Shown: piece by piece, positions 3,101 to 64,000 of the stretch
How positions within the stretch are numbered: the stretch's first letter is position 1
Layout of the letters: each line of letters starts with the position of its first letter
Assembly: GCA_020510985.1 (NCBI GenBank)
Contig: CM035843.1
Location: forward strand, 157,187,922-157,251,921
DNA length: 64,000 nucleotides
Source of the DNA: Pholidichthys leucotaenia
Lineage: Eukaryota
Direction of reading: 5' to 3'
The notes under the pieces: generated by a model
The model's input: only the letters and a program-made list of their open reading frames with translations
Told to the model about the DNA's origin: nothing
Databases searched by the model: none
Position numbers and translations under genes: made by a program

Positions 3101-3164
3101 CAATTCTCTGCAGTTGTGCCTCCCTCATCATTTAACCTCATTTCATTTTTTCCTCATTTCACAG

Positions 3165-3327: not shown

Positions 3328-3432
3328 GAAAACAGCAACAGTTGGTGCGTTCTGGAGCTTCAGAGCTTCAGAGGAGCAGAAGGACAGCAGTACCGTGTGG
3401 TCAGGTCCTGGAAGGAGGATATCCATGCTAAG
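3328..3432 (+). CDS. PARP4: PARP4 exon. Encodes ENSNSWCVLELQSFRGAEGQQYRVVRSWKEDIHAK.
   Basis: Acceptor tctgtag ends at 3327, donor gtgaag at 3433. Phase 0 on both sides. Colinear with human VGMEGGQEAVVVELQCSRDS... Confidence 0.7.
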
Positions 3433-3498
3433 GTGAAGGCTGCTCTCTGATTTTAGCTTTCATTTAGATTTGATCAGTGTATGCTAACCCTGCTAGTG

Positions 3499-6132
3499 CA
3501 GGGGTGTCCAAACTTTTTGCAAAGAGGGTCAGATTTGGTCAGGTGAAAATGTATGGGGGCCGACCATTCAGCCTGACATTCCTCGAACCATTACCATTGT
3601 AAATTACCATGTAAATATGTAACTATATCACTTTGCTGTCTGCAGCTAGGTTCACATTGCAAATGAGAATCTGTTGTCAATTGCATTACCAGGAGAGTTA
3701 AAGGTTAAAATAATAATAAATTACATACAAATAAACTATTTTATGAAATTTGACTCTGAATATTTTTAGAAACGTGTATTTATTGACTTTGTTTCAACAA
3801 ATCACATCCCAGTGCATTTTGACAAAGAATAGTATAGCCCAGTGTTTTTCAACCTTTTTTAAGCCACGGCACATTTTTTTACATTGACAAAATCCTGGGG
3901 CACACCACCAACCAAAATGACACTCTATAGCCTAACACAGTAAAAATAATAAAATATAGTTAGCAATACAGTTTCTAAATGTGTTTATACTCAGTGTGAA
4001 CCCTGGGCCTGTTTAGATGAACACAAAGCTGATATCCTGGCAGGAATGGAAGAAAGACACACACGGAGCTCTTCCTCAACAGCTCTCAGTCTCTCTCTGT
4101 TTTTAGTGTTTATCACAGTCAAGCTTGAAAAGCTCAGCTCACACGGATATGTCGTGGAAAATTGGAGCAATGTTGAAATAGCTTTGTTGGCCAGAATGGG
4201 GAACTCCTAGGCAGCAGTCAACCAAAAACTGTCCAAAGGAAGATCAGCAAAGTTTAGCTTTAAACCATGATCTTGTTTCAGTTCAATGAGTTCCTCTTGC
4301 TCCTGTAAAGTCATGTCGTTTCCAACAACTGATGCTGAGCTGTATGGACCATCTGATTACAATTCTGATCAGAATTTTACTGTTTACATGGATCCTGAAA
4401 AAGCTGATCGGATTTGGACATGCGTTTTCATGTGTCACAGGTTTGAACAGAATAAATCATTTTGACATGCGCAGGTCGACATTCAAAAAATAGTAGAAGA
4501 AGAAGCAACTTCCAGTGTTAGCGAGCCCCGCCTCGTGTCGAAATTGACCTGTATTGTGTTATTCAGACTGTACTTTTGCTTCTGCTAGTCTCCGTAATGA
4601 AGCTACAAGTACATACTTCTGCATATGATGAACAGAGACAGCAGGACGATACAGACCAGTTTTGTTTTACTCCCGCTATGTTTTCCGCTAGCTGCTGCTA
4701 CGGCGGAAATACGTCACGTCGACGTGCAGTTGGTGTACAGACATGCGCAGTAAATATATTTTCTGCCCTGTGTTCGGAATAAGTGTTTTCATGCGCACCA
4801 TTCGGATTAACAATCGGCATAACCCACCCCTCTCAATCGGAATGAAATTTTGATCCGAATGAGCGTGATCGGGTCAGAATATTCAGATTGCCGTGTTTTC
4901 GTGAAGCATTTTTATTCCGATCAGGCTTTTAATCCAGTTACTTGTGTCCATGTAAACATAGCCACTCACTCGAGTAATTAAGTTAAATTGGATAATTTCC
5001 CACCGCACACCTAACGATCTCTTATGGCACACAGGTTGAAAATCACTGGTATAGTCAAATTAAATGACAGAAATTTGACAAAACTGTGGTTTGATCATCA
5101 CAAAAAATAAATTCACTGAGACTTTGGAATTTATTCTCCTCAGAAGAATAAAAAAAATGTACCTGCATTAATGTGAAGGGTGACACTGGTGTTTTGACTG
5201 CAGTAAGCAGGCCAGGCCAGGTCTGGCTCAAAAGCAGTGGTTTTGATGCGCAAGATGTCACGCAGGTGAGAGTCACTTAGTCTTGTCCTCACACAGTTCT
5301 TGTTAATGTTCATAACCAAGAACGTCTTCTCGCACAAGTATGTCGAGCCAAACAAGCTCAGCATTTTCTTAGCAAATGTTCGAATCACTTGGAACCTGTC
5401 TTTGTCCAGCTGGCGGTAAAAGTCGATGAGAGGCAGTTGGTGGTGGCTGCAGTGTGACACTCCGCGTCACACTGCAGCTCAATGAGCTCCAGCTGCAGGT
5501 GGTCTGGAGCGTCATTAGGATCCACGGAAAAAGGAGTGGAAAAAAGTGTGATCTCCTTTTCAATAGCTGCGAAATCCCTGAAACTTTGTTGAAACTCCTC
5601 AGTCAGAGATGAGATGTTTTCTGCGTACCTCCTCATTTGTGCACTAATATTGTTTTCTGGAAAACTGGTCATCATTTCCTGCAGTGATGGGAAATGTGTG
5701 GTATTGGGCTGCGTTTGTGACAGGTGCCTTTGGAAAAGTAGCAGCTTTGTCCGAAAAGCTTTTATGTATGAATACAATTGGCTCACCACTGCATTTTGCA
5801 CCTGAAGGCTCGTGTTCAGCGCGTTCAGATGTCGTGTTATGTCAACTAAAAATCCAAAATCAGCCAGCCAAACAGGATTGCAGAGTTCTGACATCGGTTG
5901 TCTGATGCCGGAAAGTTCACACAGGGGTCATGTGACGAGAATGCGGCCACAGGTCTACTGCCACCCTCTGGTGAAATATAAAATTGCTGTTTTTGGTATG
6001 TGTGTATTGTTGACTGTGGGAAACTGTGCTGGCGGGCCACATATTATTGATTTTATGACAGGACGCTTCGGGCCGGTGGAAATTTGGACACGGGCCGGAT
6101 TTGGCCCGGGGGCCGGACTTTGGGCATGCCTG
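3499..6132 (+). mobile_element. Non-autonomous hAT-family DNA transposon (2.6 kb). It carries a remnant hAT C-terminal dimerisation-domain ORF on the minus strand at 5140-5894.
   Basis: Termini are CAGGGGTG... and ...CATGCCTG, with imperfect sub-terminal inverted repeats around a GTCCAAA motif. An 8-bp target-site duplication tGCTAGTG (3491-3498) and aGCTAGTG (6133-6140) flanks it. The internal ORF has the motif STYLCEKTFLVMNINKNCVRTRLSDSHLRDILRIK, typical of hAT/GTF2IRD2-like transposase C-termini. Confidence 0.7.
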
Positions 6133-6349
6133 AGCTAGTGTTAGCCCCAATATGGCCCCCTCAATAACCAATGGAAGATGGAGGTTGGGGTGAACTGGAG
6201 CAGATTAGCATCTCATTTAACATAAAATCCTAATCCTAAACTGGGTGTAAAATGCTGCTGAAGTGTTTAACCCCTGAGGTGTTTTGACCAAAGTGTGTCA
6301 CAGACTTCTGCAAAAACTTGATCCACACCATTCATCTGTGTGCCATCAG

Positions 6350-6508
6350 AGGGCGGCGGTCAGAGATAAGTTGGCGTTTCTGTCGACCTCAGAGGAAGCG
6401 GTGGAGGTTTACCAGGACTGGATCAACAGCCTGGAGGAGTCTGGGCTGCAGAGGAGGAGCATCCTTCCTTCACAGGAACACTCACTGGGATCTGAGCCCC
6501 TCCAGCAG
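6350..6508 (+). CDS. PARP4: PARP4 exon. Encodes RAAVRDKLAFLSTSEEAVEVYQDWINSLEESGLQRRSILPSQEHSLGSEPLQQ.
   Basis: Acceptor cag at 6347-6349, donor gtctga at 6509. Aligns to human FAIKKTSEDASEYFENYIEELKKQGF...SEQLQA. Confidence 0.75.
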
Positions 6509-9369: not shown

Positions 9370-9832
9370 CTGTACTTGTGTGCGAAGTGAAAATGCATCC
9401 GTACATCACCAGTCTGCACTGCTTGGCATTAAGACAGATATTAAGGAGTTTTAGTCTCTTTTACTGAATAAGTTCATTCATTCTATTAGTTAAATCAATT
9501 CTCAGGAAGAGCAGATTTAATGGGAGATGACCCCCAAATTTGCAGTAATTTTAGTTCAAGAAAACAATTGGAGAACACTTGTCTGGTCACAGACCTTTTG
9601 CATATGTGTGGTTTTAAATTAGATGACATGACCTTAAAAAGGGTCTTAAATTACATATCTTATAGTTACAGATATTGTACAACATTTTTGCTAATGTGGT
9701 AAATACAATTTTGTTTAATTGAGACAAAACTAGCCTGTTGAATTGATGTATTTTGTTTATAAATATGGCAGGTTGGATGTTATAAATTGTTGATGATCAC
9801 CTGTTATAACATGTGCTCTACCTGCTCCGCAG

Positions 9833-9971
9833 CTGCTCCTGGAGGAGAAGCTGAACACAGGAAGGTCTGTCAGAGGAAGTGGGCATGTTCGTGGAGCTGT
9901 TGTGGACTGAGGCCCTGGGCTGCCTCGGCCGGATCCTGGACGTTTTGGTCGACAAGCTCAGCCTCAACGAC
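9833..9971 (+). CDS. PARP4: PARP4 exon. The conservative model is 9861-9971 (EGLSEEVGMFVELLWTEALGCLGRILDVLVDKLSLND). The upstream 9833-9860 encodes LLLEEKLNTG in another frame (see finding).
   Basis: Donor gtaagg at 9972. Acceptor is either cag at 9858-9860 (frame-consistent) or ccgcag at 9830-9832 (better homology to human LLLEEVMNSSTLSQEV, but needs a 1-nt frame correction). Confidence 0.65.
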
Positions 9972-10409
9972 GTAAGGATTCCTCTGGGAATGTCAGTCTG
10001 CTGTGCTTAGTTAGGTTAGTCCTTCAGTCTCCCTTCTTCAAATCCCACCAGAGGTCTTCCTGTGTGGGGCTGTGGTGGCCACTCGAGAACTTCCAGGACC
10101 TTCTTTGAAACAAAGTTTAGTGGACTCGCGGTATCCTTGGAAGGCCCTAAGACACTCAAGCTTTCAGCTTCCTGGAATTATCTGGTTGAATCTCGTGTTT
10201 CAGTGGCGGACGGAGCAAAGCAGCCCCAGACCATGTCTGTGCCCCCACCATGCTTCACTGTAGGCAGGGTGCTTCATTCGTCCCTCCTCCAGTTTTGTTT
10301 CATATCTAGACAGGACAGAATCCCTCAAACTTCTGGGGATTATTTATGTGATTTTGAACATATTGACTCCAACTTTTCTTGAAAAGTGAAAAGTGAATCA
10401 TTATGTTTC

Positions 10410-10430
10410 TGTGTGTGTGTGTGTGTGTGT
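10410..10430 (+). repeat. (TG)10 microsatellite immediately upstream of the 3' splice site of the PARP4 exon at 10435.
   Basis: tctgtgtgtgtgtgtgtgtgtgtgtatag|GTGAGC. Confidence 0.9.
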
Positions 10431-10434
10431 ATAG

Positions 10435-10602
10435 GTGAGCAGAGCAGAAGGCCTGTTGCTTCAGGCTCAGAAGAAGCTGAGGGAGGACAATCATGTCGAG
10501 GCCGCCTCTTTGTTGGAGGAGTTTTACACTCTGGTGCCGCACCGAGAAGTCGACAGAGTTCCCCGCACCAGTCTCATCTCACAGAAACTGGATCTCTGCC
10601 AG
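10435..10602 (+). CDS. PARP4: PARP4 exon. Encodes VSRAEGLLLQAQKKLREDNHVEAASLLEEFYTLVPHREVDRVPRTSLISQKLDLCQ.
   Basis: Acceptor atag at 10431-10434, directly preceded by (TG)10. Donor gtaaga at 10603. Aligns to human VSKAEGILLLVKAALKNGETAEQLQKMMTEFYRLIPHKG...KKADLCQ. Confidence 0.8.
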
Positions 10603-10690: not shown

Positions 10691-10842
10691 TTAATGCGAG
10701 ATGTGCTGAACGTGAGCGAGCTGTCCTGGAAGAGCCCCACCCCTTCATGTGTGGGGAAGTACCGTGCCCTGAGGTGCAGCATTGAGACGGTCCCCCTCAA
10801 CAGCCCAGAGTTTCAGGATGTGACCAATCTGCTGGTGGACAG
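10691..10842 (+). CDS. PARP4: PARP4 exon. Encodes LMRDVLNVSELSWKSPTPSCVGKYRALRCSIETVPLNSPEFQDVTNLLVD(R).
   Basis: Acceptor tctacag ends at 10690, donor gtgggg at 10843. Matches human LIRDMVNVCETNLSKPNPPSLAKYRALRCKIEH... Confidence 0.8.
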
Positions 10843-10929
10843 GTGGGGGGTTTACCGTCCATGGACAATATGAAGCCAGTAGCTTCAGTGTGTATAAACA
10901 TGAGGGTTTTTGTCTCTTCTGTGTTGCAG

Positions 10930-17555: not shown

Positions 17556-17679
17556 GGACTGAGGACCCCTGAGTGGAGAAACAAGGACGTAAGACGTCAG
17601 GGCACTTTTTGAAAACTCTAAAAACTTACCCAAACTTTGACTACACAAAGTTTAGGATTTTCTGTGTGATTTACCACCG

Positions 17680-17995
17680 GAGGGGTGGCTCAGTTGGTAG
17701 AGCATCCACCCCACACCCGGGAGGCAGGGGTTCAAGTCCCGGCTGGGTCATGCCGAAGACCATATAAAAATGGAACTTCCTGCCGTCCAGCTTGGTGCTC
17801 AGCAATAATGGAATGGAGGAGGGAAATTTTTGGCAGCGCCTTGCATGGCAGCGGCCCTCTGATTCTGCACTTGGGGTGTGTGTGATTAACACAGTAGATA
17901 GGTAAAGCACAATGTCTACTGTACATGATTGGTTGTACAGTTGAATGACAATAAGGGTGATTTAATTTAATTAATTTAATTTATGAGAAAACTTA
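17680..17995 (+). mobile_element. tRNA-derived SINE, about 300 bp, with an (ATTTA)n-like tail.
   Basis: tRNA-like head GGGGTGGCTCAGTTGGTAGAGCATCC...GGTTCAAGTCCCGGC followed by a conserved body. A second copy at 35040-35350 is about 93% identical. Confidence 0.75.
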
Positions 17996-27773: not shown

Positions 27774-27938
27774 GACGTGTTCACCATCAGTGTGGGGAAT
27801 CTCCCGCCCGGCGCCACCGTCCTCATCAAAGTGACCTTCGTGTCAGAGCTGGTCGTCCAGGATGGAGCCATCGTCTTCTCGCTGCCAGGGAGTGTGGCTC
27901 CATGGCAGGAAAGCGCCGCGCTCAACCAGACCACACAG
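27774..27938 (+). CDS. PARP4: PARP4 exon (VIT domain). Encodes DVFTISVGNLPPGATVLIKVTFVSELVVQDGAIVFSLPGSVAPWQESAALNQTTQ.
   Basis: Acceptor ctgtag ends at 27773, donor gtcgga at 27939. Matches human DVFTVSVGNLPPKAKVLIKITYITELSILGTVGVFFMPATVAPWQQDKALNENLQ. Confidence 0.9.
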
Positions 27939-28250
27939 GTCGGAAGGCTTCTTCCTGCTGATCTTAAAAATCTGACTTTTTCCCTTCTTAAATTGGCAAC
28001 TTCTCCCTTAAAGTTGGAACTTCTGGTTTGATCTCAGGTATTTTAATTGAATGAATTAATTGTCCAATGCCAGCATGCGCTGGACTGATGAGCCCGAATT
28101 TACCATTTGTAAATGTCATGTCTTAAAAAGTCATTGACTTTCTTCTAGCTGCAGGTACCCTGGGGGGGGGGGGGGGGGACTTCTTTTGCTGTGTGATGTG
28201 GTGATATGTTGTGATTATGATGTGAATGTTGTGATGCATTTTATCACCAG

Positions 28251-28297
28251 GTCAGTGTGGAGAAGGTGTGTGTCCCCGATAAGGCCACAGACTGCAG
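28251..28297 (+). CDS. PARP4: PARP4 small exon. Encodes VSVEKVCVPDKATDC(R).
   Basis: Acceptor caccag ends at 28250, donor gtgaac at 28298. Matches human DTVEKICIKEIGTKQ. Phase agrees with the flanking exons. Confidence 0.7.
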
Positions 28298-28559
28298 GTG
28301 AACTCCTGTTTTACTTTATTTGCTCATTAATTTGTTCTGCAGTGAAATGATCAGTCTGTCTGCTGAACTCAGATCAGTCATTTAATTTTATTTAAGTTCA
28401 TCTATTGTCTTGGGGCTGGGCGAAGTATGGAATATATTCAGTGTATTTATGTATTTGTCCCAGTGAGAAACATAAAATGCCTATCTTGTGCCTACTGAAT
28501 ATAATTTTTCACATTAATTTTGATTTTTTTGATTTTGTATACTTTATTGATCCCCAGAG

Positions 28560-28860
28560 GGGAAATTGAGGGCATCCACCTGGATGGATGAAGCAGCCAC
28601 GTTACGGTGCTATCCCTTTACCATTCACACCTAGGGCCACTTTAGAGTCTCCAATTAACCTAACCTGCATGTTTTTGGCCTGTGGGAGGAAACCGGAGAA
28701 CTCCCAGAGTAAACCCACGCAGACACGGGGAGAACATGCAAACTCCACACAGATCACTGTTGGTCAGGGGCTGGGATCAAACCAGGGATCCCATGGCCAA
28801 GGGTGAGTTGCTGTGCCGCCACAGTGCTAACCACTCCGCCACCGCACCGCCAGCATGTAG
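28560..28860 (-). mobile_element. tRNA-derived SINE (tRNA head and body family).
   Basis: CCTAACCTGCATGTTTTTGGCCTGTGGGAGGAAACCGGAGAACTCCCAGAGTAAACCCACGCAGACACGGGGAGAACATGCAAACTCCACACAG followed by the reverse complement of a tRNA-like head. Confidence 0.7.
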
Positions 28861-29533
28861 GGGAATGGATTTTTCTTTGGAAAATTCCTTTTGCATGTTA
28901 ACGCTTTCAAGTATTTAAACCGATAATTGCTTTATGACATTGACTCGCAATTCAGTGGTCGAACTGTCCAATGTGTCCACCACCCCAACACGAAGAGCGC
29001 CTCAACCTGTTCCAGCTGATAGAGACGTGGCGAATGTTGGCAGCGGAGAAAAAAAGCCAGACCAACAAAATCAAACAGGTCCGTCTCCAAGCACACGAAA
29101 CAGGGGAACCAGATGAAGATGATTACAGTCTATAAAGGCTGAAGGGGTATTGTTGTCACCCCCACCGTGCGGATGGGCAGCTTCGGTTGTATCAGCACCT
29201 ACCTCGTGAATGTGATATCTAGAGAAAGAAATGACATGGACTTTTTAAATTGATGCCATGGGTGCATCTATGAAAACTCTTGGATGAGTTCGTATTTGGG
29301 TGACTTCTGACCTTTAGGCTGACCTAAAAGAATGAATATTTGAATTTTGATTATTTTTTCTAATTAAAATGTAAATGAAAGCTGAATTTTAAAGGACACC
29401 GAATGCACTGTATTGTGATATAGAGAAATAATATTGTGGTGCATGTTTTAGAGCTGTATCACCCAGCCCTAATTATTCTTATTTTAATTAACTTGTGGGA
29501 ACACATGTGATGAACCTGTGTCTCTTCTCTCAG

Positions 29534-29615
29534 AGAGTTCACCCTGGACTTATCTGTGGAGATGCCCAATAAAATCTCCACCCTGTTCTGTGTCACCCAT
29601 CAGGTCATGATGAAG
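29534..29615 (+). CDS. PARP4: PARP4 exon. Encodes (R)EFTLDLSVEMPNKISTLFCVTHQVMMK.
   Basis: Acceptor ctctcag ends at 29533, donor gtgagt at 29616. Matches human SFSLTMSIEMPYVIEFIFSDTHELKQK. Confidence 0.8.
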
Positions 29616-35009: not shown

Positions 35010-35039
35010 GTATGTTGGACAGTGCAGGTTTAGAGTGTC

Positions 35040-35350
35040 ATAACCGGAGTGGTGGCTCAGTTGGTAGAGCATCCGCCCCACATCCGGGAGGCAGGGGTTC
35101 AAATCCCGGCCGGGTCATGCCAAAGACCATATAAAAGTGGAATTTCCTGCCGTCCAGCTTGGTGCTCAGCAATAATGGAATGGAGGAGGGAAATTTGTGG
35201 CGGCGCCTTGCATGGCAGCGGCCCTCTGATTCTACACTTGGGGTGTGTGTGATTGACACGGTGGATAGGTAAAACACAATCTCGTTCTACTGTACATGAT
35301 TGGTTGTACAGTTGAATGACAATAAGGGTGATTTAATTTAATTTAATTTT
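35040..35350 (+). mobile_element. tRNA-derived SINE, second copy of the 17680 family.
   Basis: Head GTGGTGGCTCAGTTGGTAGAGCATCCGCCCCACATCCGGGAGGCAGGGGTTCAAATCCCGGCC and an (ATTTA)n tail. Confidence 0.75.
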
Positions 35351-35449
35351 AATTTAATTTTAATAAGCCAACAGTGGTCATAAGCTAAACAACTCACCAT
35401 AACAGCTGCGTAGTTCTCCACTGGTTTTCCTCATACCACAGATTAAAGT

Positions 35450-35710: not shown

Positions 35711-36189
35711 TGTGAAGATATTGGGGGGGGGGGTGACCATTTTTTCTTTTTTCCATGTTGGAGGGCAGTGACCCCCCCCCCCCCCATTCTCCCCTTAATT
35801 TACACCTACTAGTGTATACCCATGTATGTCAGTAGAAACCAAGTATAAGCAAGTATTTTTCATGCCCGTAGAAAGTTACTGTTACTATGGCAACAGTAAC
35901 TATGGTGAAACCTGCCTTTGATCTTGGACGTCACCATTCGTTCAGTGATGCCTGCCTTTGATCTTTGATGATGTCATAGCGAGTCCTATGAGCATCACAC
36001 ACACACACACACACTCACACAGATTTCTTGAATTATATTTAGAGTGATGAGTGGGGAATGGGGGGATAGCACCCCCCCAAAAAAAAATCACCTACTGATT
36101 ATAATTCATTTCTCAGTAAAGTTTTTGATCCATTTCCATTTTAAAAAAGACCTGTCAGTGCTATATGTAACTGGTGTTTTTGTTTTTAG

Positions 36190-36260
36190 ATCACAAAGAA
36201 GCTTTTCTCGCTCCACAGCCTGTGGATGAAGTTTATGAGAAAGCTGAGAGTTTCATCAAG
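36190..36260 (+). CDS. PARP4: PARP4 exon (vWA). Encodes (D)HKEAFLAPQPVDEVYEKAESFIK.
   Basis: Acceptor ttttag ends at 36189, donor gtgagt at 36261. Matches human YKELFSYPKHITSNTMAAEFIM. Phase 1 carry-over from the previous exon. Confidence 0.7.
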
Positions 36261-41356: not shown

Positions 41357-44300
41357 CTAATTGTAGGCTATATCAAAAAGGTAGGTTTTAGCCCTATTCT
41401 TAAAAACAGAGATCAAGTCTGACTCCCGAATCCAGATTGGCAGCTGATTCCACAGGAGAGGAGCTTGATAACTAAAGGCTCTGCCTCCCATTGTACTTTT
41501 GGAGATTCTAGGTATTACAAGTAAACCTGCATTTTGGGAGCGTAGTGCTCTGTTAGGATGATACGGTAGTATCAGATCTTTTAAATAAAAAGGAGCCTGA
41601 TTGTTTAGAGCTTTGTAAGTAAGAAGAAGGATTTTAAACTTAATTCTAAACTCTATGGGAAGCCAATGAAGGGAGGCCAGAACCGGAGAGATATGATCTC
41701 TCTTTCTAGTACCTGTTAAAACTCTTGCTGCAGCATTTTGGATCAGCTGAAGACTTTTTAAAGATGTTTTAGGACAGCCTGATAATAAAGAATTACAATA
41801 ATCTAATCTCGAGCTAACAAAAGCGTGGATCAGCTTCTCAGCATCACTCTGAGACAAGATGCTCCTAATCTTGGCAATATTACGCAAATGATAGAAGGCA
41901 GTCTTAGAAACAAATTTAATATGTGAATTGAAGGACAAATCCTGATCAAAAATAACTCCAAGGTTCCTCACAGAGCTATTAAGAGAAAGAGTAACTGCAT
42001 CCAAACTGAAAGTTTGATTTGGAAAGGAATTTCTAAGGTTTTTTGGACCAACAAGAATGACTTCAGTCTTATCTGAATTTAATAGCAGGAAATTACAAGT
42101 CATCCAAACTTTGATTTCCTTAAGACAGGCTTCTAACTTGGCTAATTGATTAGTATCATCTGGCTTCATTGACAGGTATAATTGTGTGTCATCTGCATAA
42201 CAGTGAAAATGTATACAGTGCTTTCTAATAATGTTGCCTAACGGAAGCATATATAAACTAAAAAGAGTAGGGCCAAGCACAGATCCCTGTGGAACTCCAT
42301 GACTAAGCTTTGAGCTGAGAGAAAACTCATCATTTACATGAACAAACTGGAACCTATCAGATAAATAAGATCTAAACCACTGCAACGAAGTTCCATTAAG
42401 TCCAACATAGTGTTCTAATCTATCAAGTAGAATATTATGATCAATAGTATCAAAAGCTGCACTAAGATCTAAAAGGACAAGTACAGAAACTAGTCCATTA
42501 TCAGATGCAATGAGGAGGTCGTTAGTGACCTTCGCTAAGGCTGTTTCAGTGCTATGATGGATTCTAAACCCAGATTGAAACTCCTCAAATAAACCATTTC
42601 CCTGCAGGTGGTCAAATAATTGCGTAGCAACAACTCTTTCTAAGATTTTTGAAATGAAAGGGAGATTAGAGATTGGTCTATAGTTAGCTAAATCTCCTGG
42701 ATCTAGCGTTGGCTTTTTGAGTAAGGGTTTAATTACAGCCGTTTTAAAAGCCTGCGGTACATGGCCTAAAGTTAATGAAGAATTGATTATATGAAGAATA
42801 AAGCTACCAATAAGTGGGAAGACTTCTTTAAATAACCTGGTAGGAATAGGGTCTAAAAGACAAGTTGAAGGTTTGGATGAGGAAACTATTTTGTCTAACT
42901 CACAAAGGTCGATTGGAGTAAACTCATCAAGACAGACATCAATAGAAGGAGTTGTAGTAGTTACAGTATTTAAGTTAACTGTGGGAAGAATCTGATTGAT
43001 TTTATCTCTGATGGATGAAATTTTATTATTGAAAAAGTTCATAAAGTCCTGACTAGTAAGCTCTAAGGGGATGCTAGGATTGACAGAGTCCTGACTCTTT
43101 GTCAACCTGGCTACAGTACTGAAAAGAAACCTGGGATTATTCTTGTTCTCTTCTATTAATGCAGAGTAATAACTCGTTCTAGCTTTTCTAAGAGATTTTT
43201 TATAAATTAAAAGATGATTTCTCCAAGCTAAATAGATTTCATCTAAATTAGTAGAGCGCCATTTTCTTTCTAATTGACGAGTCTTCTGTTTTAAGCTACG
43301 AGTTTCTGTGTTGAACCAAGGAGTTAAAAATCTCTGATTAGCCTTTTTCTTTTTTAAGGGGGCCACCAAGTCTAGAGCCTGATGCAGAGAAGCTGAAACA
43401 CTATCCACCATGTTATCAATTACAGAAGGAGCAAGCTGACTATAGCTTATTTCCGTTGTGTTGACACATGGCATAGAGGAAACAATCTGCATAAATTTGG
43501 AAACAGCATCATCTGAGAGGCATCTACTGTGATAATATTTTTCTTTAGGAGCCAAATAGTCAGAAATAGTAAAATCAAAGGTTAACAGACAATGGTCTGA
43601 CAGTACAGGGTTATGAGGAGACACTACAAGATTTTCTATTTCTATGCCATATGTCAGAACAAGGTCCAATGTATGGTGGAGGTAATGAGTAGAATTTCCT
43701 ACTTTCTGAGAAAACCCAATCGAGTCTAATATTGAATTAAAAGCCACATTAAGGCAGTCACTATCTACATCCACATGTATATTAAAGTCCCCTACTATAA
43801 TTATTCTATCAGATTTCAGCACTAAATCAGCTAAGAAATCAGGAAATTCGGATAAAAATTCTGAATAGGTTGATGGGGGACGATAAACTATGGCAAATAA
43901 AATTGGGTTTAACCTGGAATTGCTAAAGTGCCCAACACTGAGGACCAGGCCCTCAAAGGAATTATAACATGTTTTTTGCTTTACATTAACTAGTAATTTG
44001 GAATGGTAAATTGTTGCTACTCCTCCTCCACGACCAGAACTTCTGGGATTTTGACAGTTTAAATAACCAGAGGGAGTTGATTCATTTAAACCAACATAAT
44101 CCTCTTGTCCTAACCAAGTCTCTGTAAGGGAAATTAAATCAATCTGATGATCAATTAACAGATCATGGACTAACAGAGACTTGGGAGTTAGAGACCTAAT
44201 ATTTAATAAACCACATTTAATTTTTAAATTATGAGGAGGAACAGAGGCCAAATCATTCAATTTAGAGGCTTTATGTTTAATTTGAGTTTTACCAATATTT

Positions 44301-44362
44301 TGCTTTATCACTTTGGGATGCTTATACATTATATTTTTATTTACTTTGGAGGGAGCAGACAA
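41357..44362 (-). CDS. L2 ORF2 (apurinic-endonuclease-like plus reverse transcriptase), 1001 aa, uninterrupted.
   Basis: Single long ORF. Shows APE motifs (LNIRSL...SLTETWL), the RT motif FDTIDHNIL, and YADDTQLY. Confidence 0.85.
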
Positions 44363-44473
44363 CGATTCTCTGATGGGGAAGACAGGGGCTAAGCTGAGGG
44401 GTGGCGGATGAAGAGGAGCTGCAGAGAGGCGTGTAAGACTGAGACTCTGCTTCCTGGTCCCAACTCTGAGTAG

Positions 44474-45352
44474 TTATGGTTTTGGAAATTTGGATAAAAA
44501 AGATGCCAGATTGTTAGATAAATGAGAAGCACCATTCAAAGTGGGATGAATGCTGTCTCGTCTCATAAGACCAGGTTTTCCCCAAAAAGAGCTCCAATTG
44601 TCAATGTAGCCCACGTCATTTTTAGGACACCACACAGACAGCCAGCGGTTCAAGGATGACGAGCGACTAAACATGTCATCACTGGTCAGATTGGGGAGGG
44701 GTCCAGAGAATACTACAGTGGCAGACATCGTTTTGGCAAAGTCACACACCGATTCTATATTAAGTTTCGTGACTTCCGACTGCCGGAGACGGATGTCATT
44801 AATGCCGGCGTGAATAACAATTGTGGAATATTTACAGTTACTTTTAGCCAGCATTTTCAAATTTGACTCGATGTCGCCTGCTCTGGCCCCAGGAATGCAT
44901 GTGACTATGGCCGATGGAGTCTCTAGGTTCACGTTTCTGACTACAGAGTCGCCAATGATCAGAGTTTTTTCCTCAGCGGGTGTGTCGCTGAGCGGGGAAA
45001 AACGATTAGAAACGTGAACAGGTTGGTGGTGAACCGGGGCTTTGCGACTAGGCTTCCTTCTCACCGTCACCCACCCAGTCTCCTCGCTGCTGAGGAGAGC
45101 CGGGGAACCACTGACAGGGGGGCCTAAGCTAGCTAGCTCCGCTGCAGCTAATGGGCGTCCGTCGAGATTAACTGGCGCAGACGGTGTTTCAATGCAGCGG
45201 AGCCGGGATTCCAAATCAGACAACCTCGCCTCGAGCGCCTCAAAAAGACAACATTTATTACATTTACCGTTATCACTAAAAGAGGCAGAGGTGTAGCTAA
45301 ACATCTGACAGAGAGAGCACACCAGAGGAGAGGAAAGAGAGGTAGTAGCCAT
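44474..45352 (-). CDS. L2 ORF1 with a C-x2-C zinc knuckle, a coiled coil and an SGNH-hydrolase (esterase) domain, 292 aa.
   Basis: Motifs [13 protein letters not shown] ... HAGINDIR ... DSIHPT. Esterase-type ORF1 is known from CR1 and L2 LINEs. Confidence 0.75.
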
Positions 45353-47278
45353 AGCTAGTGGCTAGAGAGCTGGAGAGCAAACCACACAGGCAGACAGCAA
45401 AACAGGAAGTGACGATACGTTACCACAAGGAAGTGACGATCACAATTCCTACCACAATTCCAAGTTAGTGGAATTTATATGGAACAACAGGAGGGCTAGA
45501 TTACGTCTGTCCTTATTATATTTACCATTTGATCGTGGAGGTCTGAAATGTCCAAACTTTATGTTGTATTATTGGTCGGCGCAACTGAGGTCTATGACAT
45601 ATTATTTTTCATCAAATGATCTCCCTCACTGGACGGAGATGGAATCATACAATTTACCTTTACCTCTTCCCATATTCATATACTCAGATTCGGCAAAAAA
45701 ATTACAAAAACAAGTTAAAAATCCATTTGTAAAGCATATGATCAAAATATGGTGTGAAACTAAAAACTATTTAAAAGAACCACACTTATTGTCACAATTT
45801 AGCCCAATATGGGGTAATCAATATTTTAAACCAGGGAGAGCGGATGCTGTATTTAAAGTATGGAATTTAAAAGGGATTCAAAAGAGTCAAGATTTATATC
45901 TGTCACGTTCAGATAACATAATGTCTTTTGAAGAGCTGAGGATCAAATTTAATCTTAATAGAACACATTTTTTTTAAATATCTTCAACTTCGGAACTTTA
46001 TTCGATCAAATCAAAATAAAGCTCTCACTCGACCTATTTATTCATCCTTGGAAAAAATGTTGATGAAAGATAGTAAAAGAAAGGGTATTATTTCAGAGTT
46101 TTATAACTCATTGACACTATCCTCAAGTGAAAACTCACAGAAAAGATTAAACTACTGGAAAGAAGATCTGCAAACTGAAATTTCAGAGGAACAATGGGAA
46201 TTGGCTTGTACAGAAGCTCAAACCAAATCAATAAATGTACGTCTTAAATTGATACATTTTAAATGGTTAATGCGGATGTATGTTACACCAGTGGAGTTAA
46301 ATAGATATAACAAAAACATACCAGATACATGCACAAAATGCATGGAAAGTAAAGGAACCCTATTTCATTGTGTATGGGAATGTAGAATAATTAGAGTGTT
46401 TTGGGAAGAGGTGAGGGTAACAATTGAAAAAATAATTTCAAAACAAATCATATTGAATCCTAAACTGTTTTTGTTGGGTCTGTACCCAGAAAAGCATAAC
46501 TTTAATAAAAGTGAAAGAACATTCATAGACCTCAGTTTGCTTAATGCCAAAAAATGTATTGCACTACTGTGGAAAAAGACTCATAGACCAGATGTGACTC
46601 AGTGGTTAAGACAGATGTTAATAAACCTTCCACTAGAAAGAATAACATACATACTGAAATCAAAGGAAACTGTGTTTGAGAATATATGGAGACCTTTTAT
46701 TGATTATGTAAAGAATTTAAACATAACTTTTGAAGAAGAAGGTGAATGATGTGTGTGGACCTTGTAAATTCCAAACTGGTGAATATAATATGTATACTTA
46801 TGTAATGGATTGCCTAGACTAAACAGAGGAGCATTGTTGAAGACTTGATTTTGTTGGTGGTTGTTGGTGTTTTTAGTGTATTTTTTTTTTTGTAGTACTT
46901 TAGTGTTAGTGTTTGTTTGTGTCATGTTTGTTAAAAAAAAAGGTTCAATAAAGATATTGTGGAAAAAAAAATTTACTTGAAAAAGTCACATACTACTGAA
47001 AAAAATTACAAGCTTCACCCCCCCCCCCCCCGCCCCGATCCCAAAGTAATATTGGATATTAAACTTGGTGGGCACTCATGCCATGAACGACTTTTGCAAG
47101 GACTGATATTGGATGGAGTCTCTCATTGGCCTAGCATCTCTGCTACTTTGCTGCTGCTAGCTTCTGTGTGGACTCCAGCATGTAAGTTCACCTGCTGCCA
47201 TCTTTGCGTGGACCCTGGCCTGTGACTTCATCACCTCTTCTTTAGTGAGCTTTACTTCATTGTGGCCCTGAGTGTCTA

Positions 47279-56927: not shown

Positions 56928-57115
56928 AGGGCCTGTCCAGTAGGGGGCAGCACTGAGCTGTGGCGGCCCCTGAGAGCCCTCAGCCTGCTCCCTCCGTCCC
57001 GGGGCATCAGGAACCTGCTGCTGCTGTCGGATGGACACATCCACAATGCCGAGCTGACCCTGAAGCTGGTTAGAGACAACGCCCAGCACAGCCGCCTCTT
57101 CACCTGTGGCCTCAG
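56928..57115 (+). CDS. PARP4: PARP4 exon (vWA). Encodes RACPVGGSTELWRPLRALSLLPPSRGIRNLLLLSDGHIHNAELTLKLVRDNAQHSRLFTCGL.
   Basis: Acceptor cctgacag ends at 56927 after a pyrimidine tract, donor gtctga at 57116. Matches human SATPTMGNTDFWKTLRYLSLLYPARGSRNILLVSDGHLQDESLTLQLVKRSRPHTRLFACGI. The preceding intron is about 20.7 kb and consists of LINE, Tc1 and SINE insertions. Confidence 0.8.
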
Positions 57116-57203
57116 GTCTGATGAGCCCAGCGGTACCAAGATTAATCGACATGTTTATTATCGGACCAGACGCCGTAAATGTGCCTGTGTTTTCACATTT
57201 CAG

Positions 57204-57303
57204 CTCAACAGCCAACAGACACATGCTGAGGACCCTGGCCCAGGCAGGGGGCGGATCCTACGCCTTCTTTGACAGGAAAACCAAACACAACTGGGCCGAG
57301 AAG
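57204..57303 (+). CDS. PARP4: PARP4 exon. Encodes (S)TANRHMLRTLAQAGGGSYAFFDRKTKHNWAEK.
   Basis: Acceptor catttcag ends at 57203, donor gtaaat at 57304. Matches human GSTANRHVLRILSQCGAGVFEYFNAKSKHSWRKQ. Confidence 0.85.
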
Positions 57304-57375
57304 GTAAATAATCACATAATCAGTTTTCTGCAGTGAAATGAAAGTTGTAGGAGTTATTAATCGTTTGTGTTGCAG

Positions 57376-57546
57376 GTGGCCTCTCAGGTGAAGCGTATGG
57401 CATCTCCCGGCTGCAGCTCGGTGTCGGTGAAGTGGCAGCAGTTCAGCCAGATGGCCCCCCCTCCCATCCAGGCCCCCAAGCAGCTGCACGCCCTGTTCAA
57501 CGACTTCCACACCCTGGTGTACGGCTTCGTGCCTCACTGCACTCAG
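57376..57546 (+). CDS. PARP4: PARP4 exon. Encodes VASQVKRMASPGCSSVSVKWQQFSQMAPPPIQAPKQLHALFNDFHTLVYGFVPHCTQ.
   Basis: Acceptor ttgcag ends at 57375, donor gtaaac at 57547. Matches human LCSPSCHSVSVKWQQLNPDVPEALQAPAQVPSLFLNDRLLVYGFIPHCTQ. Confidence 0.9.
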
Positions 57547-58189
57547 GTAAACGACCGGATATTTGTGTTTATGTTGGATACTCCCCAACAGCACACATAC
57601 ACCGCTGCAACATCAGCCCAACATACCAGTTTACATCGGCAATACAGCTTATAGGGGTGTTTTCCCCTTGGCAAGACAGTATGCCTTTTTACACCAGTCC
57701 ACCTTTTTAAGTCACACTGGCAGCCTCAACCCCTCCATGGATTGCTGCCATATCATGGGGGAGGAGTTTGTGTGCCGTAATGATTCTGGGAGCTGTGTTG
57801 TCAGGGGCAGTTTGCTCCTGGTCGGGTCTCCCAACGTAAGATTGATCCGGAGTGAAGAGCCAGACCAAGAGAGCGGTCCAGCTGACCCCCAGCTGCAACA
57901 AGGATCCAGTCTACCCCACCCAATTAGGGATTACCGAGGCTCAAGGGCAAGAGCTTTGTGACCCAGTGAGCCACATGGGTCCGACCTTCAGTGGACTCAC
58001 TACCTGCAGGAGGGATCATCGGGATTATAGGGCTATGTGAACTAGCCCACAGTCTGGGCTACTCTGCTTAGACTGCTGTCCCTGCGACCTGGCCCCCGAT
58101 TAAGAGGTAGAAGATGGATGGATGCCAACCTCTAGCCTCTATAAATACTACATATGACGTTGTAATGCAGTCGTCATCACACATAGGGT

Positions 58190-58330
58190 GCTGTCTGGGA
58201 AATTTTTGATGCAAATTTGTGATGAAAGTTTTAAATTTACAATGGCGGAAAGTTTGAAATTTACCAACCTGGGGAAAAAGTCACAAATTGACGAGATGGA
58301 AAAAGTGGCAAACTTAAGAGGAAGGAAAGA
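58190..58330 (+). repeat. Short 23-bp VNTR block flanked by direct repeats of about 90 bp (58110-58200 and 58330-58430).
   Basis: GATGGATGGATGCCAACCTCTAGCCTCTATAAATACTACA...GGGTGCTGTCTGGGAAA is present on both sides. Confidence 0.7.
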
Positions 58331-58672
58331 TGGATCAATGAATGGATTCCAACCTCTAGCCTCTATAAATACTACACAGGACATTAAGTAACGCCGTCAT
58401 CATCACACGTAGGGTGCTGTCTGGGAAAGGGACCAACTGTATGGAAGTTCCAGCCGATTCAAAACGTTGCCATGACGTGTAGTTACATTTCTGAAGAGGT
58501 GCCCATCAGGTCACCATGAGCAGCCTAGCTGAGCCCTGACGGGGCAGAGGTTATCGCTACTGTAGCATCATCAGGATTAAACGCTGCATCACCAGGTGTT
58601 GCTGCTGGTAGATCAATATGGACCTGAATCTTCATATTTAAAGTGTGTTTTGTTTTTTTACATGTTATACAG

Positions 58673-58753
58673 GCCACCCTGCATGGAAACCTGAGCGGGC
58701 AGCAGCTCAGCACCATGGTGTCCACCAGTGAGCTGCAGAAGACTAAAGGAACA
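58673..58753 (+). CDS. PARP4: PARP4 exon. Encodes ATLHGNLSGQQLSTMVSTSELQKTKGT.
   Basis: Acceptor tatacag ends at 58672, donor gtaaga at 58754. Matches human ATLCALIQEKEFRTMVSTTELQKTTGT. Confidence 0.85.
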
Positions 58754-58849
58754 GTAAGAACATGGACATCTTCACAGCACGCCAGATCTAAACTTGTTTC
58801 ATGGCTCGTCTGATGTAACAAAATGTTGATGGGGTTTTTTTTGGCTCAG

Positions 58850-58930
58850 TTTCTCCACAAGCTCACAGCGAGGGCCCTGATCAGGGACTACGAGGACGGA
58901 AGCCTGGATCCCAGCGAGGCTGAGCACGAG
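58850..58930 (+). CDS. PARP4: PARP4 exon. Encodes FLHKLTARALIRDYEDGSLDPSEAEHE.
   Basis: Acceptor gctcag ends at 58849, donor gtattt at 58931. Matches human MIHKLAARALIRDYEDGILHENETSHE. Confidence 0.85.
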
Positions 58931-59019
58931 GTATTTTTGTCACCGAGACCCAACAGTCGTTCATGTTGTTTTAAACGCTGAGTCAGCGCTTTTCCCCGTT
59001 TTGTGTTTTGATGTTTCAG

Positions 59020-59115
59020 GGTAAGAAAGCCGAGCTGAAGTTGTTCATCACTGAGCTGAGCAAAGAGTACTCCATCCTCTCTCAGTTCACAAGCTTCGTG
59101 GCCATTGAGGAAAGG
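59020..59115 (+). CDS. PARP4: PARP4 exon. Encodes GKKAELKLFITELSKEYSILSQFTSFVAIEER.
   Basis: Acceptor gtttcag ends at 59019, donor gtctgt at 59116. Matches human MKKQTLKSLIIKLSKENSLITQFTSFVAVEKR. Confidence 0.85.
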
Positions 59116-59149
59116 GTCTGTGCCGTTTTCTAGTTGATTTCCAAGTTTG

Positions 59150-59620
59150 TGCTCATTGCAAGAAATATCATACTCTCACAAATTTAGCATAAGGTAGAAA
59201 TATATAAATGTAAATTAGGTACAAATTTGCAAGAATAAAGGTGCAAAGATGTGATAAAAGATGTCATTTTAAGTTATTTTACAAGAAGAAATTGTATTTT
59301 GATGAGGAAAAAAGTTGCAAATTTGAGAAAAAAGTAGTAAATTTAGAAGAAAAAAGTTGCAATTTTATGAGAAAAAAGTTGCAAATTTGCAAGAAAAAAT
59401 TGCTATTTCAGGAAAAAGTTGCAAATTTGAGAAAGTTGCAATTTTCTGAGGGGAAAAAGCTGCAAGTTTACAAGAAAAAAAGTTGCAAATTTAGAAAAAG
59501 TGGCAAATGTACAAGAAAAAATTGCAATTTGACAAGGAGAAAAGTAGCAAATTTGACAAAAAAGTTTCATTTTTCTGAGAAAAAAAAAAGCTGCAAATTT
59601 ACCAGAAAAAAATAATTCAT
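59150..59620 (+). repeat. Composite element copy. Head at 59170-59290, then a VNTR array at 59290-59620.
   Basis: Head CTCACAAATTTAGCATAAGGTAGAAATATATAAATGTAAATTAGGTACAAATTTGCAAGAATAAAGGTGCAAAG, followed by GTTGCAAATTT units. Confidence 0.75.
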
Positions 59621-59960
59621 AAGGCAAAACAAGTAAGTAATTTGGGAGTATGTTTCATTTGGTGTAAATTTAAATGCTGAAAAACAAGATCTACTCTTTT
59701 TTTAAGTTGAGCCAGCTGGGGAGGCCGACACCACCTCAGGGAGTGACATTTTTGAAGCATTTATGAAAAAAAGTTGCTAATTTCCTATTTTTTTCTGTCG
59801 TGAATTGTAAACTTTTTTCTACCTGTGTATTAGATATTTGTTTGTAAAATTTAAGTTACAATGATTTTTAAATTGGAGAAAAGAGGATAATAAAAATTAT
59901 CTTTTTTTTTAGGCCTTCATTAGACTTTAATCTGACAGAATTTAATGAATCTTTCTTCAG

Positions 59961-60152
59961 GACTCGGAGGGAGAAGTTGAGGGCTTCACAGACGTCCCCA
60001 AGTTGATATCAGAGGAAGACGTGGACTTCCTCCCCTACATCAGCTGGGCAGCTCCTCAGGATGAAACTCTTGAATTTGACCACATTGACGATGACGAAGA
60101 TTGGAGTGATGAAGAAGAAGTCACCATCATCTCTCCAAAATATGAACCCACG
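59961..60152 (+). CDS. PARP4: PARP4 exon. Encodes DSEGEVEGFTDVPKLISEEDVDFLPYISWAAPQDETLEFDHIDDDEDWSDEEEVTIISPKYEPT.
   Basis: Acceptor tcttcag ends at 59960, donor gtgagt at 60153. Matches human DENESPFPDIPKVSELIAKEDVDFLPYMSWQGEPQEA. The rest of the gene continues beyond the window. Confidence 0.8.
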
Positions 60153-60594
60153 GTGAGTCTGATTGGAGTTCTGCACTTTGAAAGTAAAATTGAACTCAGC
60201 AAATATTTGATTAATAGATTCTCCCTATTTTCATACTGCGCACAGAACACAAAGTTTAGTGTGGTGTAAATTTAATTCTGCTTTTTAAAATGTTATAATT
60301 TGTGCACATTAATTAATTTTTCAACAGAAAAAAATAAACTGTTATATAGAATAAAAATATGTAACCAGTTTATATGACTGTTAATTTTTTGGGGGGGGGA
60401 AAAGTCAAACATTTATAAGAAAAAGTTGCAAATTGATCGTAGAAGAAGATTCCAAATTTACAGAAAAACACAAATATGAGAAAAATGGGAATGGGGATTT
60501 CAGGGGATCGTCACTTCCTTGTGGTAACGTATCGTCACTTCCTGTTTTGCTGTCTGCCTGTGTGGTTTGCTCTCCAGCTCTCTAGCCACTAGCT

Positions 60595-61473
60595 ATGGCT
60601 ACTACCTCTCTTTCCTCTCCTCTGGTGTGCTCTCTCTGTCAGATGTTTAGCTACACCTCTGCCTCTTTTAGTGATAACGGTAAATGTAATAAATGTTGTC
60701 TTTTTGAGGCGCTCGAGGCGAGGTTGTCTGATTTGGAATCCCGGCTCCGCTGCATTGAAACACCGTCTGCGCCAGTTAATCTCGACGGACGCCCATTAGC
60801 TGCAGCGGAGCTAGCTAGCTTAGGCCCCCCTGTCAGTGGTTCCCCGGCTCTCCTCAGCAGCGAGGAGACTGGGTGGGTGACGGTGAGAAGGAAGCCTAGT
60901 CGCAAAGCCCCGGTACACCACCAACCTGTTCACGTTTCTAATCGTTTTTCCCCGCTCAGCGACACACCCACTGAGGAAAAAACTCTGATCATTGGCGACT
61001 CTGTAGTCAGAAACGTGAACCTAGAGACTCCAGCGGTCATAGTCCAATGTATTCCTGGGGCCAGAGCAGGCGACATCGAGTCAAATTTGAAAATGCTGGC
61101 TAAAAGTAACTGTAAATATTCCACAATTGTTATTCACGCCGGCATTAATGGCATCCGTCTCCGGCAGTCGGAAGTCACGAAACTTAATATAGAATCGGTG
61201 TGTGACTTTGCAAAAACGATGTCTGCCACTGTAGTATTCTCTGGGCCCCTCCCCAATCTGACCAGTGATGACATGTTTAGTCGCTCGTCATCCTTGAACC
61301 GCTGGCTGTCTGTGTGGTGTCCTAAAAATGACGTGGGCTACATTGACAATTGGAGCTCTTTTTGGGGAAAACCTGGTCTTATGAGACGAGACAGCATTCA
61401 TCCCACTTTGGATGGTGCTTCTCATTTATCTAACAATCTGGCATCTTTTTTATCCAAATTTCCAAAACCATAA
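60595..61473 (+). CDS. L2 ORF1 (zinc knuckle, coiled coil and SGNH esterase), 292 aa.
   Basis: Differs from the 44474-45352 copy at only about 6 residues. Confidence 0.8.
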
Positions 61474-61584
61474 CTACTCAGAGTTGGGACCAGGAAGCAG
61501 AGTCTCAGTCTTACACGCCTCTCTGCAGCTCCTCTTCATCCGCCACCCCTCAGCTTAGCCCCTGTCTTCCCCATCAGAGAATCG

Positions 61585-64000
61585 TTGTCTGCTCCCTCCA
61601 AAGTGAATAAAAATATAATGTATAAGCATCCCAAAGTGATAAAGCAAAATATTGGTAAAACTCAAATTAAACATAAAGCCTCTAAATTGAATGATTTGGC
61701 CTCTGTTCCTCCTCATAATTTAAAAATTAAATGTGGTTTGTTAAATATTAGGTCTCTAACTCCCAAGTCTCTGTTAGTCCATGATCTGTTAATTGATCAT
61801 CAGATTGATTTAATTTCCCTTACAGAGACTTGGTTAGGACAAGAGGATTATGTTGGTTTAAATGAATCAACCCCCTCTGGTTATTTAAACTGTCAAAATC
61901 CCAGAAGTTCTGGTCGTGGAGGAGGAGTAGCAACAATTTACCATTCCAAATTACTAGTTAATGTAAAGCAAAAAACATGTTATAATTCCTTTGAGGGCCT
62001 GGTCCTCAGTATTGGGCACTTTAGCAATTTCAGGTTAAACCCAATTTTATTTGCCATTGTTTATCGTCCCCCATCAACCTATTCAGAATTTTTATCCGAA
62101 TTTGCTGATTTCTTAGCTGATTTAGTGTTGAAATCTGATAGAATAATTATAGTAGGGGACTTTAATATACATGTGGATGTAGATAGTGACTGCCTTAATG
62201 TGGCTTTTAATTCAATATTAGACTCGATTGGGTTTTCTCAGAAAGTAGGAAATTCTACTCATTACCTCCACCATACATTGGACCTTGTTCTGACATATGG
62301 CATAGAAATAGAAAATCTTGTAGTGTCTCCTCATAACCCTGTACTGTCAGACCATTGTCTGTTAACCTTTGATTTTACTATTTCTGACTATTTGGCTCCT
62401 AAAGAAAAATATTATCACAGTAGATGCCTCTCAGATGATGCTGTTTCCAAATTTATGCAGATTGTTTCCTCTATGCCATGTGTCAACACAACGGAAATAA
62501 GCTATAGACAGCTTGCTCCTTCTGTAATTGATAACATGGTGGATAGTGTTTCAGCTTCTCTGCATCAGGCTCTAGACTTGGTGGCCCCCTTAAAAAAGAA
62601 AAAGTCTAATCAGAGATTTTTAACTCCTTGGTTCAACACAGAAACTCGTAGCTTAAAACAGAAGACTCGTCAATTAGAAAGAAAATGGCGCTCTACTAAT
62701 TTAGATGAAATCTATTTAGCTTGGAGAAATCATCTTTTAATTTATAAAAAATCCCTTAGAAAAGCTAGAACGAGTTATTACTCTGCATTAATAGAAGAGG
62801 ACAAGAATAATCCCAGGTTTCTTTTCAGTACTGTAGCCAGGTTGACAAAGAGTCAGGACTCTGTCAATCCTAGCATCCCCTTAGAGCTTACTAGTCAGGA
62901 CTTTATGAACTTTTTCAATAATAAAATTTCATCCATCAGAGATAAAATCAATCAGATTCTTCCCACAGTTAACTTAAATACTGTAACTACTACAACTCCT
63001 TCTATTGATGTCTGTCTTGATGAGTTTACTCCAATCGACCTTTGTGAGTTAGACAAAGTAGTTTCCTCATCCAAACCTTCAACTTGTCTTTTAGACCCTA
63101 TTCCTACCAGGTTATTTAAAGAAGTCTTCCCACTTATTGGTAGCTTTATTCTTCATATAATCAATTCTTCATTAACTTTAGGCCATGTACCGCAGGCTTT
63201 TAAAACGGCTGTAATTAAACCCTTACTCAAAAAGCCAACGCTAGATCCAGGAGCTTTAGCTAACTATAGACCAATCTCTAATCTCCCTTTCATTTCAAAA
63301 ATCTTAGAAAGAGTTGTTGCTACGCAATTATTTGACCACCTGCAGGGAAATGGTTTACTTGAAGAGTTTCAATCTGGGTTTAGAATCCATCATAGTACTG
63401 AAACAGCCTTAGCGAAGGTCACTAACGACCTCCTCACTGCATCTGATAATGGACTAGTTTCTGTACTTGTCCTTTTAGATCTTAGTGCAGCTTTTGATAC
63501 TATTGATCATAATATTCTACTTGATAGATTAGAACACTATGTTGGACTTAATGGAACTTCGTTGCAGTGGTTTAGATCTTATTTATCTGATAGGTTCCAG
63601 TTTGTTCATGTAAATGATGAGTTTTCTTTCAGCTCAAAGCTTAGTCATGGAGTTCCACAGGGATCTGTGCTAGGCCCTGCTCTTTTTAGTTTATATATGC
63701 TTCCGTTAGGCAACATTATTAGAAAGCACTGTATACATTTTCATTGTTATGCAGATGACACACAATTATACCTGTCAATGAAGCCAGATGATACTAATCA
63801 ATTAGCCAAGTTAGAAGCCTGTCTTAAGGAAATCAAAGCTTGGATGACTTGTAATTTCCTGCTATTAAATTCAGATAAGACTGAAGTCATTCTTGTTGGT
63901 CCAAAAAACCTTAGAAATTCCTTTCCAAATCAAACTTTCAGTTTGGACGCAGTTACTCTTTCTCTTAATAGCTCTGTGAGGAACCTTGGAGTTATTTTTG
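61585..64000 (+). CDS. L2 ORF2 (APE plus RT), partial. It is open to the end of the window.
   Basis: Colinear with the 1001-aa ORF2 at 41357-44362 ([17 protein letters not shown]...[14 protein letters not shown]...YADDTQLY). Confidence 0.8.

Follow-up and report, generated by a model that had tools for sequence, protein, structure and literature searches.

The plus strand of the window, the whole 64-kb stretch of DNA analysed here, carries most of a teleost PARP4 (vault PARP) gene, of which 26 exons were mapped. A tblastn search with a human PARP4 sequence, used as a lead only, returned collinear exon matches from 3187 to 60062, and our conclusions are based on database proteins and on six orthologous genomic loci: Notothenia coriiceps (L001), Coregonus (L003), Xenoophorus captivus (L005), Goodea atripinnis (L006) and two Logan fish contigs (L002 and L004). 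The mapped series opens with an exon starting at 3163 and closes with one starting at 59961; the 5′ exons for the N-terminal BRCT domain, and the 3′ end of the gene with the C-terminal MVP-interaction domain, fall beyond the 64 kb. In two protein database searches, the exon translations matched NCBI-named PARP4 or PARP4-like proteins with E values down to 1e-157. The top named database matches were all PARP4 or PARP4-like, with no other PARPs among them, and the named PARP4 matches spanned fish (including Notothenia, Hippocampus, Liparis, Plectropomus and Goodeidae), amphibians, reptiles, birds and mammals. Pfam recognised the PARP catalytic domain in the conceptual translation (PF00644, E = 4.3e-30), and the catalytic H-Y-E residues are present in the window exons in the motifs PLLHSS, GIYFTDS and DDEYVVY. 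The translation of the downstream exons matched VIT (PF08487, 1.1e-38) and VWA (PF13768/PF00092, 6.5e-16/1.6e-08). To our knowledge, VIT and VWA domains placed C-terminal to the catalytic domain form an architecture that is unique to PARP4 among PARPs. The assignment of the gene to PARP4 in the first-pass annotation is correct. The closest relatives in the collection were the percomorphs Goodeidae, Nematolebias, Notothenia and Hippocampus, with 70–93% identity by exon. Same-species sequence was not found: exact look-ups of the ORFs at 10062-10382, 9787-9975 and 10694-10873 came back empty, and the best protein identity in two protein searches was only about 83–93%, which indicates that the species is absent from the searched collections.

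The introns of the gene also house repeats. A young non-LTR retrotransposon (LINE) is present in two inverted copies, at 41357-45441 on the minus strand and at 60506-64000 on the plus strand, the latter running off the end of the window. The two are 99.0% identical over 3,495 bp, with no indels, and the complete copy encodes a GDSL-esterase-like ORF1 of 292 aa and an ORF2 of 1001 aa with endonuclease and reverse transcriptase. Both copies lie in PARP4 introns and together bracket about 15 kb with seven PARP4 exons (56928-60062), an inverted arrangement that could in principle mediate an inversion. A tRNA-derived SINE-like repeat at 35043-35356 (Rfam tRNA match at 35046-35117, 29.5 bits, just above threshold) sits immediately 3′ of the donor that closes the exon ending near 35011; another intron contains a copy of it with 93% identity, at 17676-17983. 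A second inverted repeat pair (49187-50769/51169-52758; about 1.6 kb, 94.7% identity, 9 gap openings) is found in a 20-kb intron.

One exon of the gene, at 9833-9971, is interrupted by a change of reading frame. The coding sequence of the PARP helical/regulatory domain starts in this exon, and a weak Pfam PARP_reg match begins just downstream of it. The features of the exon and its surroundings are as follows (a slash marks a splice boundary).

6350-6508, plus strand: upstream PARP4 exon, RAAVRDKLAFLSTSEE...GSEPLQQ, placed by tblastn with fish PARP4 proteins and by junction enumeration; it ends at 6508/6509 as ...EPLQQ, in phase 0, at the donor cag/GTCTGA
9803-9832, plus strand: 3′ end of the intron, with a branch-point-like TTATAAC (A at 9809, 23 nt upstream of the canonical AG), the pyrimidine tract CTCTACCTGCTCC and the acceptor CAG at 9830-9832, where the intron runs out as ...ctctacctgctccgcag
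9833-9971, plus strand: the PARP4 exon in question, 139 nt here versus 138 nt in the orthologs
9833-9862, plus strand: codons 1-10 of the exon, LLLEEKLNTG, which continue the frame of the upstream exon
9858-9860, plus strand: internal CAG, the sole frame-restoring AG, with a poor acceptor score
9863-9865, plus strand: AGG, the site of the surplus base, with six orthologs gapped opposite 9864 in two alignments
9864-9971, plus strand: remainder of the exon, read in the +1 frame as GLSEEVGMFVELLWTEALGCLGRILDVLVDKLSLND, matching the phase of the donor and the next exon
9908-9910, plus strand: premature TGA reached from the canonical acceptor, 61 nt short of the exon's 3′ end
9972-9977, plus strand: donor GTAAGG, with the boundary GAC/gtaagg at 9971/9972
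10435-10602, plus strand: next PARP4 exon, VSRAEGLLLQ...KLDLCQ, phase 0, tatag/GTGAGC; at its acceptor (10405-10434) a (TG)n microsatellite replaces the classical polypyrimidine tract (TGTGTGTGTGTGTGTGTGTATAG/GTG)

Read from 9833, the exon yields LLLEEKLNTG, then RSVRGSGHVRGAVVD and then the TGA at 9908-9910; spliced at the canonical acceptor, the assembled sequence gives LLLEEKLNTGRSVRGSGHVRGAVVD before it reaches the same stop. The upstream exon demands the LLLEE frame and the donor and downstream exon demand the GLSEEV frame, so that the break must be internal to the exon and exactly +1. At the protein level, Hippocampus comes matches QLLLEEKLNTG with 100% identity, and fish proteins share 65–78% identity with the remaining part of the exon. 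Because both halves match PARP4 orthologs, the frame break is not a chance juxtaposition. The first-pass annotation had described an acceptor ccgcag ending at 9832, LLLEEKLNTG from 9833, a TGA at 9908 and a +1 break within the exon, and all of these are present in the sequence.

Comparison with the orthologs locates the change. The exon measures 138 nt (46 codons, phase 0/0) in all six orthologous fish loci and 139 nt only in the window, and its 46 codons are conserved without indels in the proteins of seahorse, carp, whitefish, frog, lizard, turkey and one mammal. The CAG acceptor is invariant in all seven aligned sequences, as is the GT of the donor. In the seven-way DNA alignment, a single one-column gap falls opposite window position 9864 in each of the six orthologs, within the AGG at 9863-9865. 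The assembled context is GGAAGGTCTG, with two Gs at 9864-9865 (run length 2), and the single-G version is GGAAGTCTG. Removing one G changes ACA GGA AGG TCT GTC AGA to ACA GGA AGT CTG TCA GAG, which reads TGSLSE; the repaired window then has TGSLSEEV where Notothenia has TGSLSQEV. An indel near 9860-9864 had been proposed from the window alone: the surplus base is confirmed, and its location is slightly further 3′ than proposed, at the AGG (9863-9865) or the AA (9862-9863). Nucleotide identity to the six orthologs is 82% over the first 30 exonic nucleotides and 73% over the remainder of the exon, versus 42–43% in the flanking introns; within the exon, LLLEE is the best-conserved motif between fish and mammals. 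As these alignments show, the window has one inserted base in a deeply conserved exon.

Beyond this exon, the mapped exons, their junctions and the catalytic residues are intact. The other 25 mapped exons have open frames and phase-compatible GT-AG junctions, and a search for a second lesion (stop, frameshift or splice defect) across the 26 exons found none. Three junctions were at first unsolved. At 3423 to 6347, the acceptor lay inside the chosen anchor; those from 27938 to 29532 and from 35008 to 56931 were resolved by two small unmapped exons, both intact.

28251-28297: small PARP4 exon of 47 nt, VSVEKVCVPDKATDC (compare human DTVEKICIKE), located by a targeted search
about 36189-36260: small PARP4 exon of about 75 nt, with a TTTTTAG acceptor just upstream of 36189, encoding DHKEAFLAPQPVDEVYEKAESFIK (compare Austrofundulus DHTEAFLKAQPLSEVRQAAESFIK)

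Ordinary tblastn missed both of these exons. The GenBank PARP4 models of Liparis and Xenoophorus skip 28251-28297 together with 29534-29615, joining ...NQTTQ to RTDCKAV, and the Xenoophorus model is also without the exon at 36189; such small exons are easily lost in annotation. We also looked in the protein alignment for relaxed constraint in this lineage and did not see it. The window protein deviates at 5 of 89 otherwise invariant columns, all of the changes being conservative (E/D, K/R, S/T, S/A and V/L), and this proportion falls within the 1.5–21.6% range of the other species. Given that the gene has no other lesion and no sign of relaxed constraint, the insertion is very recent in evolutionary terms, whatever its cause.

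We consider a single-base consensus error of sequencing or assembly to be the most likely cause of the surplus G at 9864/9865, at a rough probability of 45%. The real exon would then be 138 nt long, be spliced at the conserved acceptor 9832/9833 and encode LLLEEKLNTGSLSEEVGMFVELLWTEALG..., the first helix of the PARP helical domain, and its biology would be unremarkable. An error is favoured because only the window has 139 nt and deletion of one G restores TGSLSEEV, because conservation is at coding level on both sides of the break while the rest of the gene is intact, and because consensus errors of long-read assemblies classically show up as a lone 1-bp indel in a gene that is perfect elsewhere. 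In support of this idea, a passage in PMC12007338 treats single-base indels that create false frameshifts as a well-documented artefact of long-read assembly. The window resembles such an assembly in that it contains no Ns and resolves two 3.5-kb LINE copies at 99% identity.

Several considerations count against an error. First, the local base-level accuracy looks good, with no indel noise where it is measurable: the LINE copies at 60506-64000 and 41947-45441 (inverted) show 35 substitutions but 0 indels between them over 3,495 bp, homopolymer runs of at least 4 nt are of equal length in both copies (66/66), and the LINE ORFs of 1001 aa and 292 aa are intact. Second, the change is from G to GG and does not lie in a long homopolymer or a low-complexity run; HiFi and nanopore errors concentrate in long homopolymers. 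Third, duplication of a neighbouring base is the commonest kind of real 1-bp insertion as well. It is base rates, together with the lack of any other sign of decay, that suggest that the surplus base is absent from the DNA of the animal. This evidence accommodates a real but very young mutation nearly as well, and by rough base-rate reasoning the artefact and a real young allele lie within a factor of about 1.2 of each other.

A genuine and very young 1-bp insertion (a G duplication), either segregating or recently fixed, is accordingly a serious if tentative second candidate, and would make the window sequence a PARP4 null allele. Canonical splicing would produce LLLEEKLNTGRSVRGSGHVRGAVVD and then the TGA at 9908-9910, and the mRNA would probably be degraded by nonsense-mediated decay, which is expected of a stop that lies 61 nt before the end of its exon with many junctions before the last exon, by the 50–55 nt rule. 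Any product would be predicted to end after the WGR-like region, without the helical, catalytic, VIT, VWA and vault-binding parts. A null allele fits all of the exon anatomy as well as a consensus error does, and it is consistent with a local assembly without indel noise and with the non-homopolymer context of the G-to-GG change. Mice can do without PARP4, and humans tolerate loss-of-function variants of it, which makes a segregating null allele plausible. So does the loss of vaults from several eukaryotic lineages; vaults are not essential everywhere (PMC4038475). On the other side, the finding of no second lesion in the 26 exons and of no relaxed constraint means that such an allele must be extremely recent, and across vertebrates purifying selection acts on PARP4 outside its largest exon (PMC4038475). 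A literature search for pseudogenisation or frameshifts of fish PARP4 returned nothing relevant.

That the extra G is both real and fixed seems unlikely to us. If it were, PARP4 might survive by low-level use of the AG at 9860 or by exon skipping, which would amount to an acceptor shift or exon loss at its birth, or the lineage might just be starting to lose its vault PARP.

The more specific proposal that the insertion is real and that splicing has moved to the AG at 9859-9860, leaving a functional gene with a 111-nt exon (QQ/EGLSEEVGMF...) that lacks LLLEEKLNT, is improbable. Junction enumeration identified this AG as the only GT-AG solution between the flanking anchors that joins both frames, and the resulting ORF is open across all later exons. 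The first-pass annotation was therefore correct to name the cag at 9858-9860 as a frame-consistent alternative, giving QQ/EGLSEEV without LLLEEKLNT. However, apart from its AG the site lacks the features of an acceptor. Only 6 of the 20 nucleotides upstream of it are pyrimidines (GGAGGAGAAGCTGAACAC), below every one of the 20 other acceptors of the gene (10–17). Scored with a position weight matrix (PWM) built from those 20 acceptors, whose leave-one-out scores range from 3.5 to 11.1, the AG at 9860 reaches −4.3; among all 4,168 AGs of the strand, it ranks at the 45th percentile. With 14/20 pyrimidines and a PWM score of 4.9 (92nd percentile among the AGs), the canonical acceptor at 9832 falls within the range of the gene's other acceptors. 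It stands undamaged 28 nt upstream of 9860, with the branch-like TTATAAC 23 nt before it, and three out-of-frame AGs (9843, 9846 and 9849) intervene between it and 9860. Other ways of rescuing the frame were also rejected, since the third frame has a TGA at 9852-9854 and the AGs at 9843, 9846, 9849 and 9863 are out of frame.

The segment that an acceptor shift would discard argues in the same direction. These 28–30 nt encode an exact LLLEEKLNTG and are 82% identical to the orthologs, versus about 42% for intron; with conservation at this coding level, they are not evolving as intron. The shift would also cost the exon LLLEE, its most conserved motif. Moreover, the CAG arises from the codons ACA GGA and is present in Notothenia too, whose exon is intact. 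A random-like score for the AG and coding-level conservation of the discarded 28 nt together disfavour an evolved acceptor shift, and the lineage-specific shift that had been suggested on first inspection, at a site with no polypyrimidine tract, is not borne out. The two other suggestions made then, an assembly indel and an incipient inactivating lesion, both stay plausible.

Skipping of the whole exon would also rescue a real insertion, because both flanking junctions are in phase 0: a 6508/10435 junction would give an in-frame PARP4 without the 46 residues at the start of the helical domain. A GenBank PARP4-like model from Electrophorus electricus (P0009) joins ...HTLQQ to VSRVEGLLLQ, so a skipped form does give an open frame; however, this model is an automated prediction and not a transcript. 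Its omission of the ortholog of 9833-9971 may reflect a similar problem in that exon of the Electrophorus genome, or the predictor may have dropped the exon. Against skipping, the window exon has a good acceptor and a good donor, it opens with a purine-rich GGAGGAGAAG of a type that would be expected to favour inclusion, and its length and sequence are highly conserved across vertebrates. We regard exon skipping as more doubtful still than a moved acceptor. Finally, programmed +1 ribosomal frameshifting at GGA-AGG-T, in which A9863 would be skipped to yield a full-length LLLEEKLNTG-GLSEEV..., has in its favour solely a product of exact ortholog length and sequence, and can in practice be set aside, given that the site has no stop and no known slippery or hungry-codon context, no stable downstream RNA structure (z = +1.19; 179/200 shuffles fold at least as well) and no Rfam element, and that 0/6 orthologous loci need a frameshift. 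An Rfam search found no RNA genes at the exon locus.

Taken together, a conserved peptide split over two frames within one exon of an otherwise perfect gene is the mark of a very recent single-base event and not of an evolved splicing change. The locus presents an ordinary single-base frameshift in a known gene, either an error or a very young null allele, and no new biology. If the base is an error, the gene model needs repair by deletion of one G, giving an exon of 138 nt that starts at 9833. A real base would instead mean a PARP4 null allele in the sequenced animal. This fish would then be a mildly useful natural knockout for the vault poly(ADP-ribose) polymerase, though an unsurprising one, as the gene is dispensable in some lineages. 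Beyond annotation, the importance of either outcome is small.

In its exon order and protein sequence, in its domain order (helical, PARP catalytic, VIT, VWA) and in the boundaries of the exon at 9833-9971, which are identical in six other fish, the window gene resembles vertebrate PARP4 (vault PARP, vPARP/ARTD4); the one surplus base in that exon is where it differs. From the programmed +1 frameshifts of the antizyme and Ty type it is set apart by the lack of a shift-prone site, of a stimulatory structure and of conservation in orthologs. Known cryptic 3′ splice sites come into use when the authentic site is weakened. The in-frame AG 28 nt inside the exon recalls such cryptic or alternative 3′ splice-site use after an exonic mutation, but the AG in the window is without the other features of an acceptor and the canonical site is intact. 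Like young loss-of-function alleles and incipient unitary pseudogenes, the window gene carries a disabling lesion, which leads to a premature stop after 15 codons, and PARP4 is reported to be dispensable in some lineages; unlike an established pseudogene, the window gene shows neither further lesions nor relaxed constraint. From the false frameshifts of long-read assemblies the locus differs in that its surplus base lies in no long homopolymer and that the surrounding 64 kb show no other indel noise where it is measurable. In other respects they offer a close likeness: an isolated 1-bp indel in a conserved exon, a frame that is restored by the removal of one base and no other sign of decay in the gene. 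NCBI annotation repairs such false frameshifts and labels the products 'LOW QUALITY PROTEIN'.
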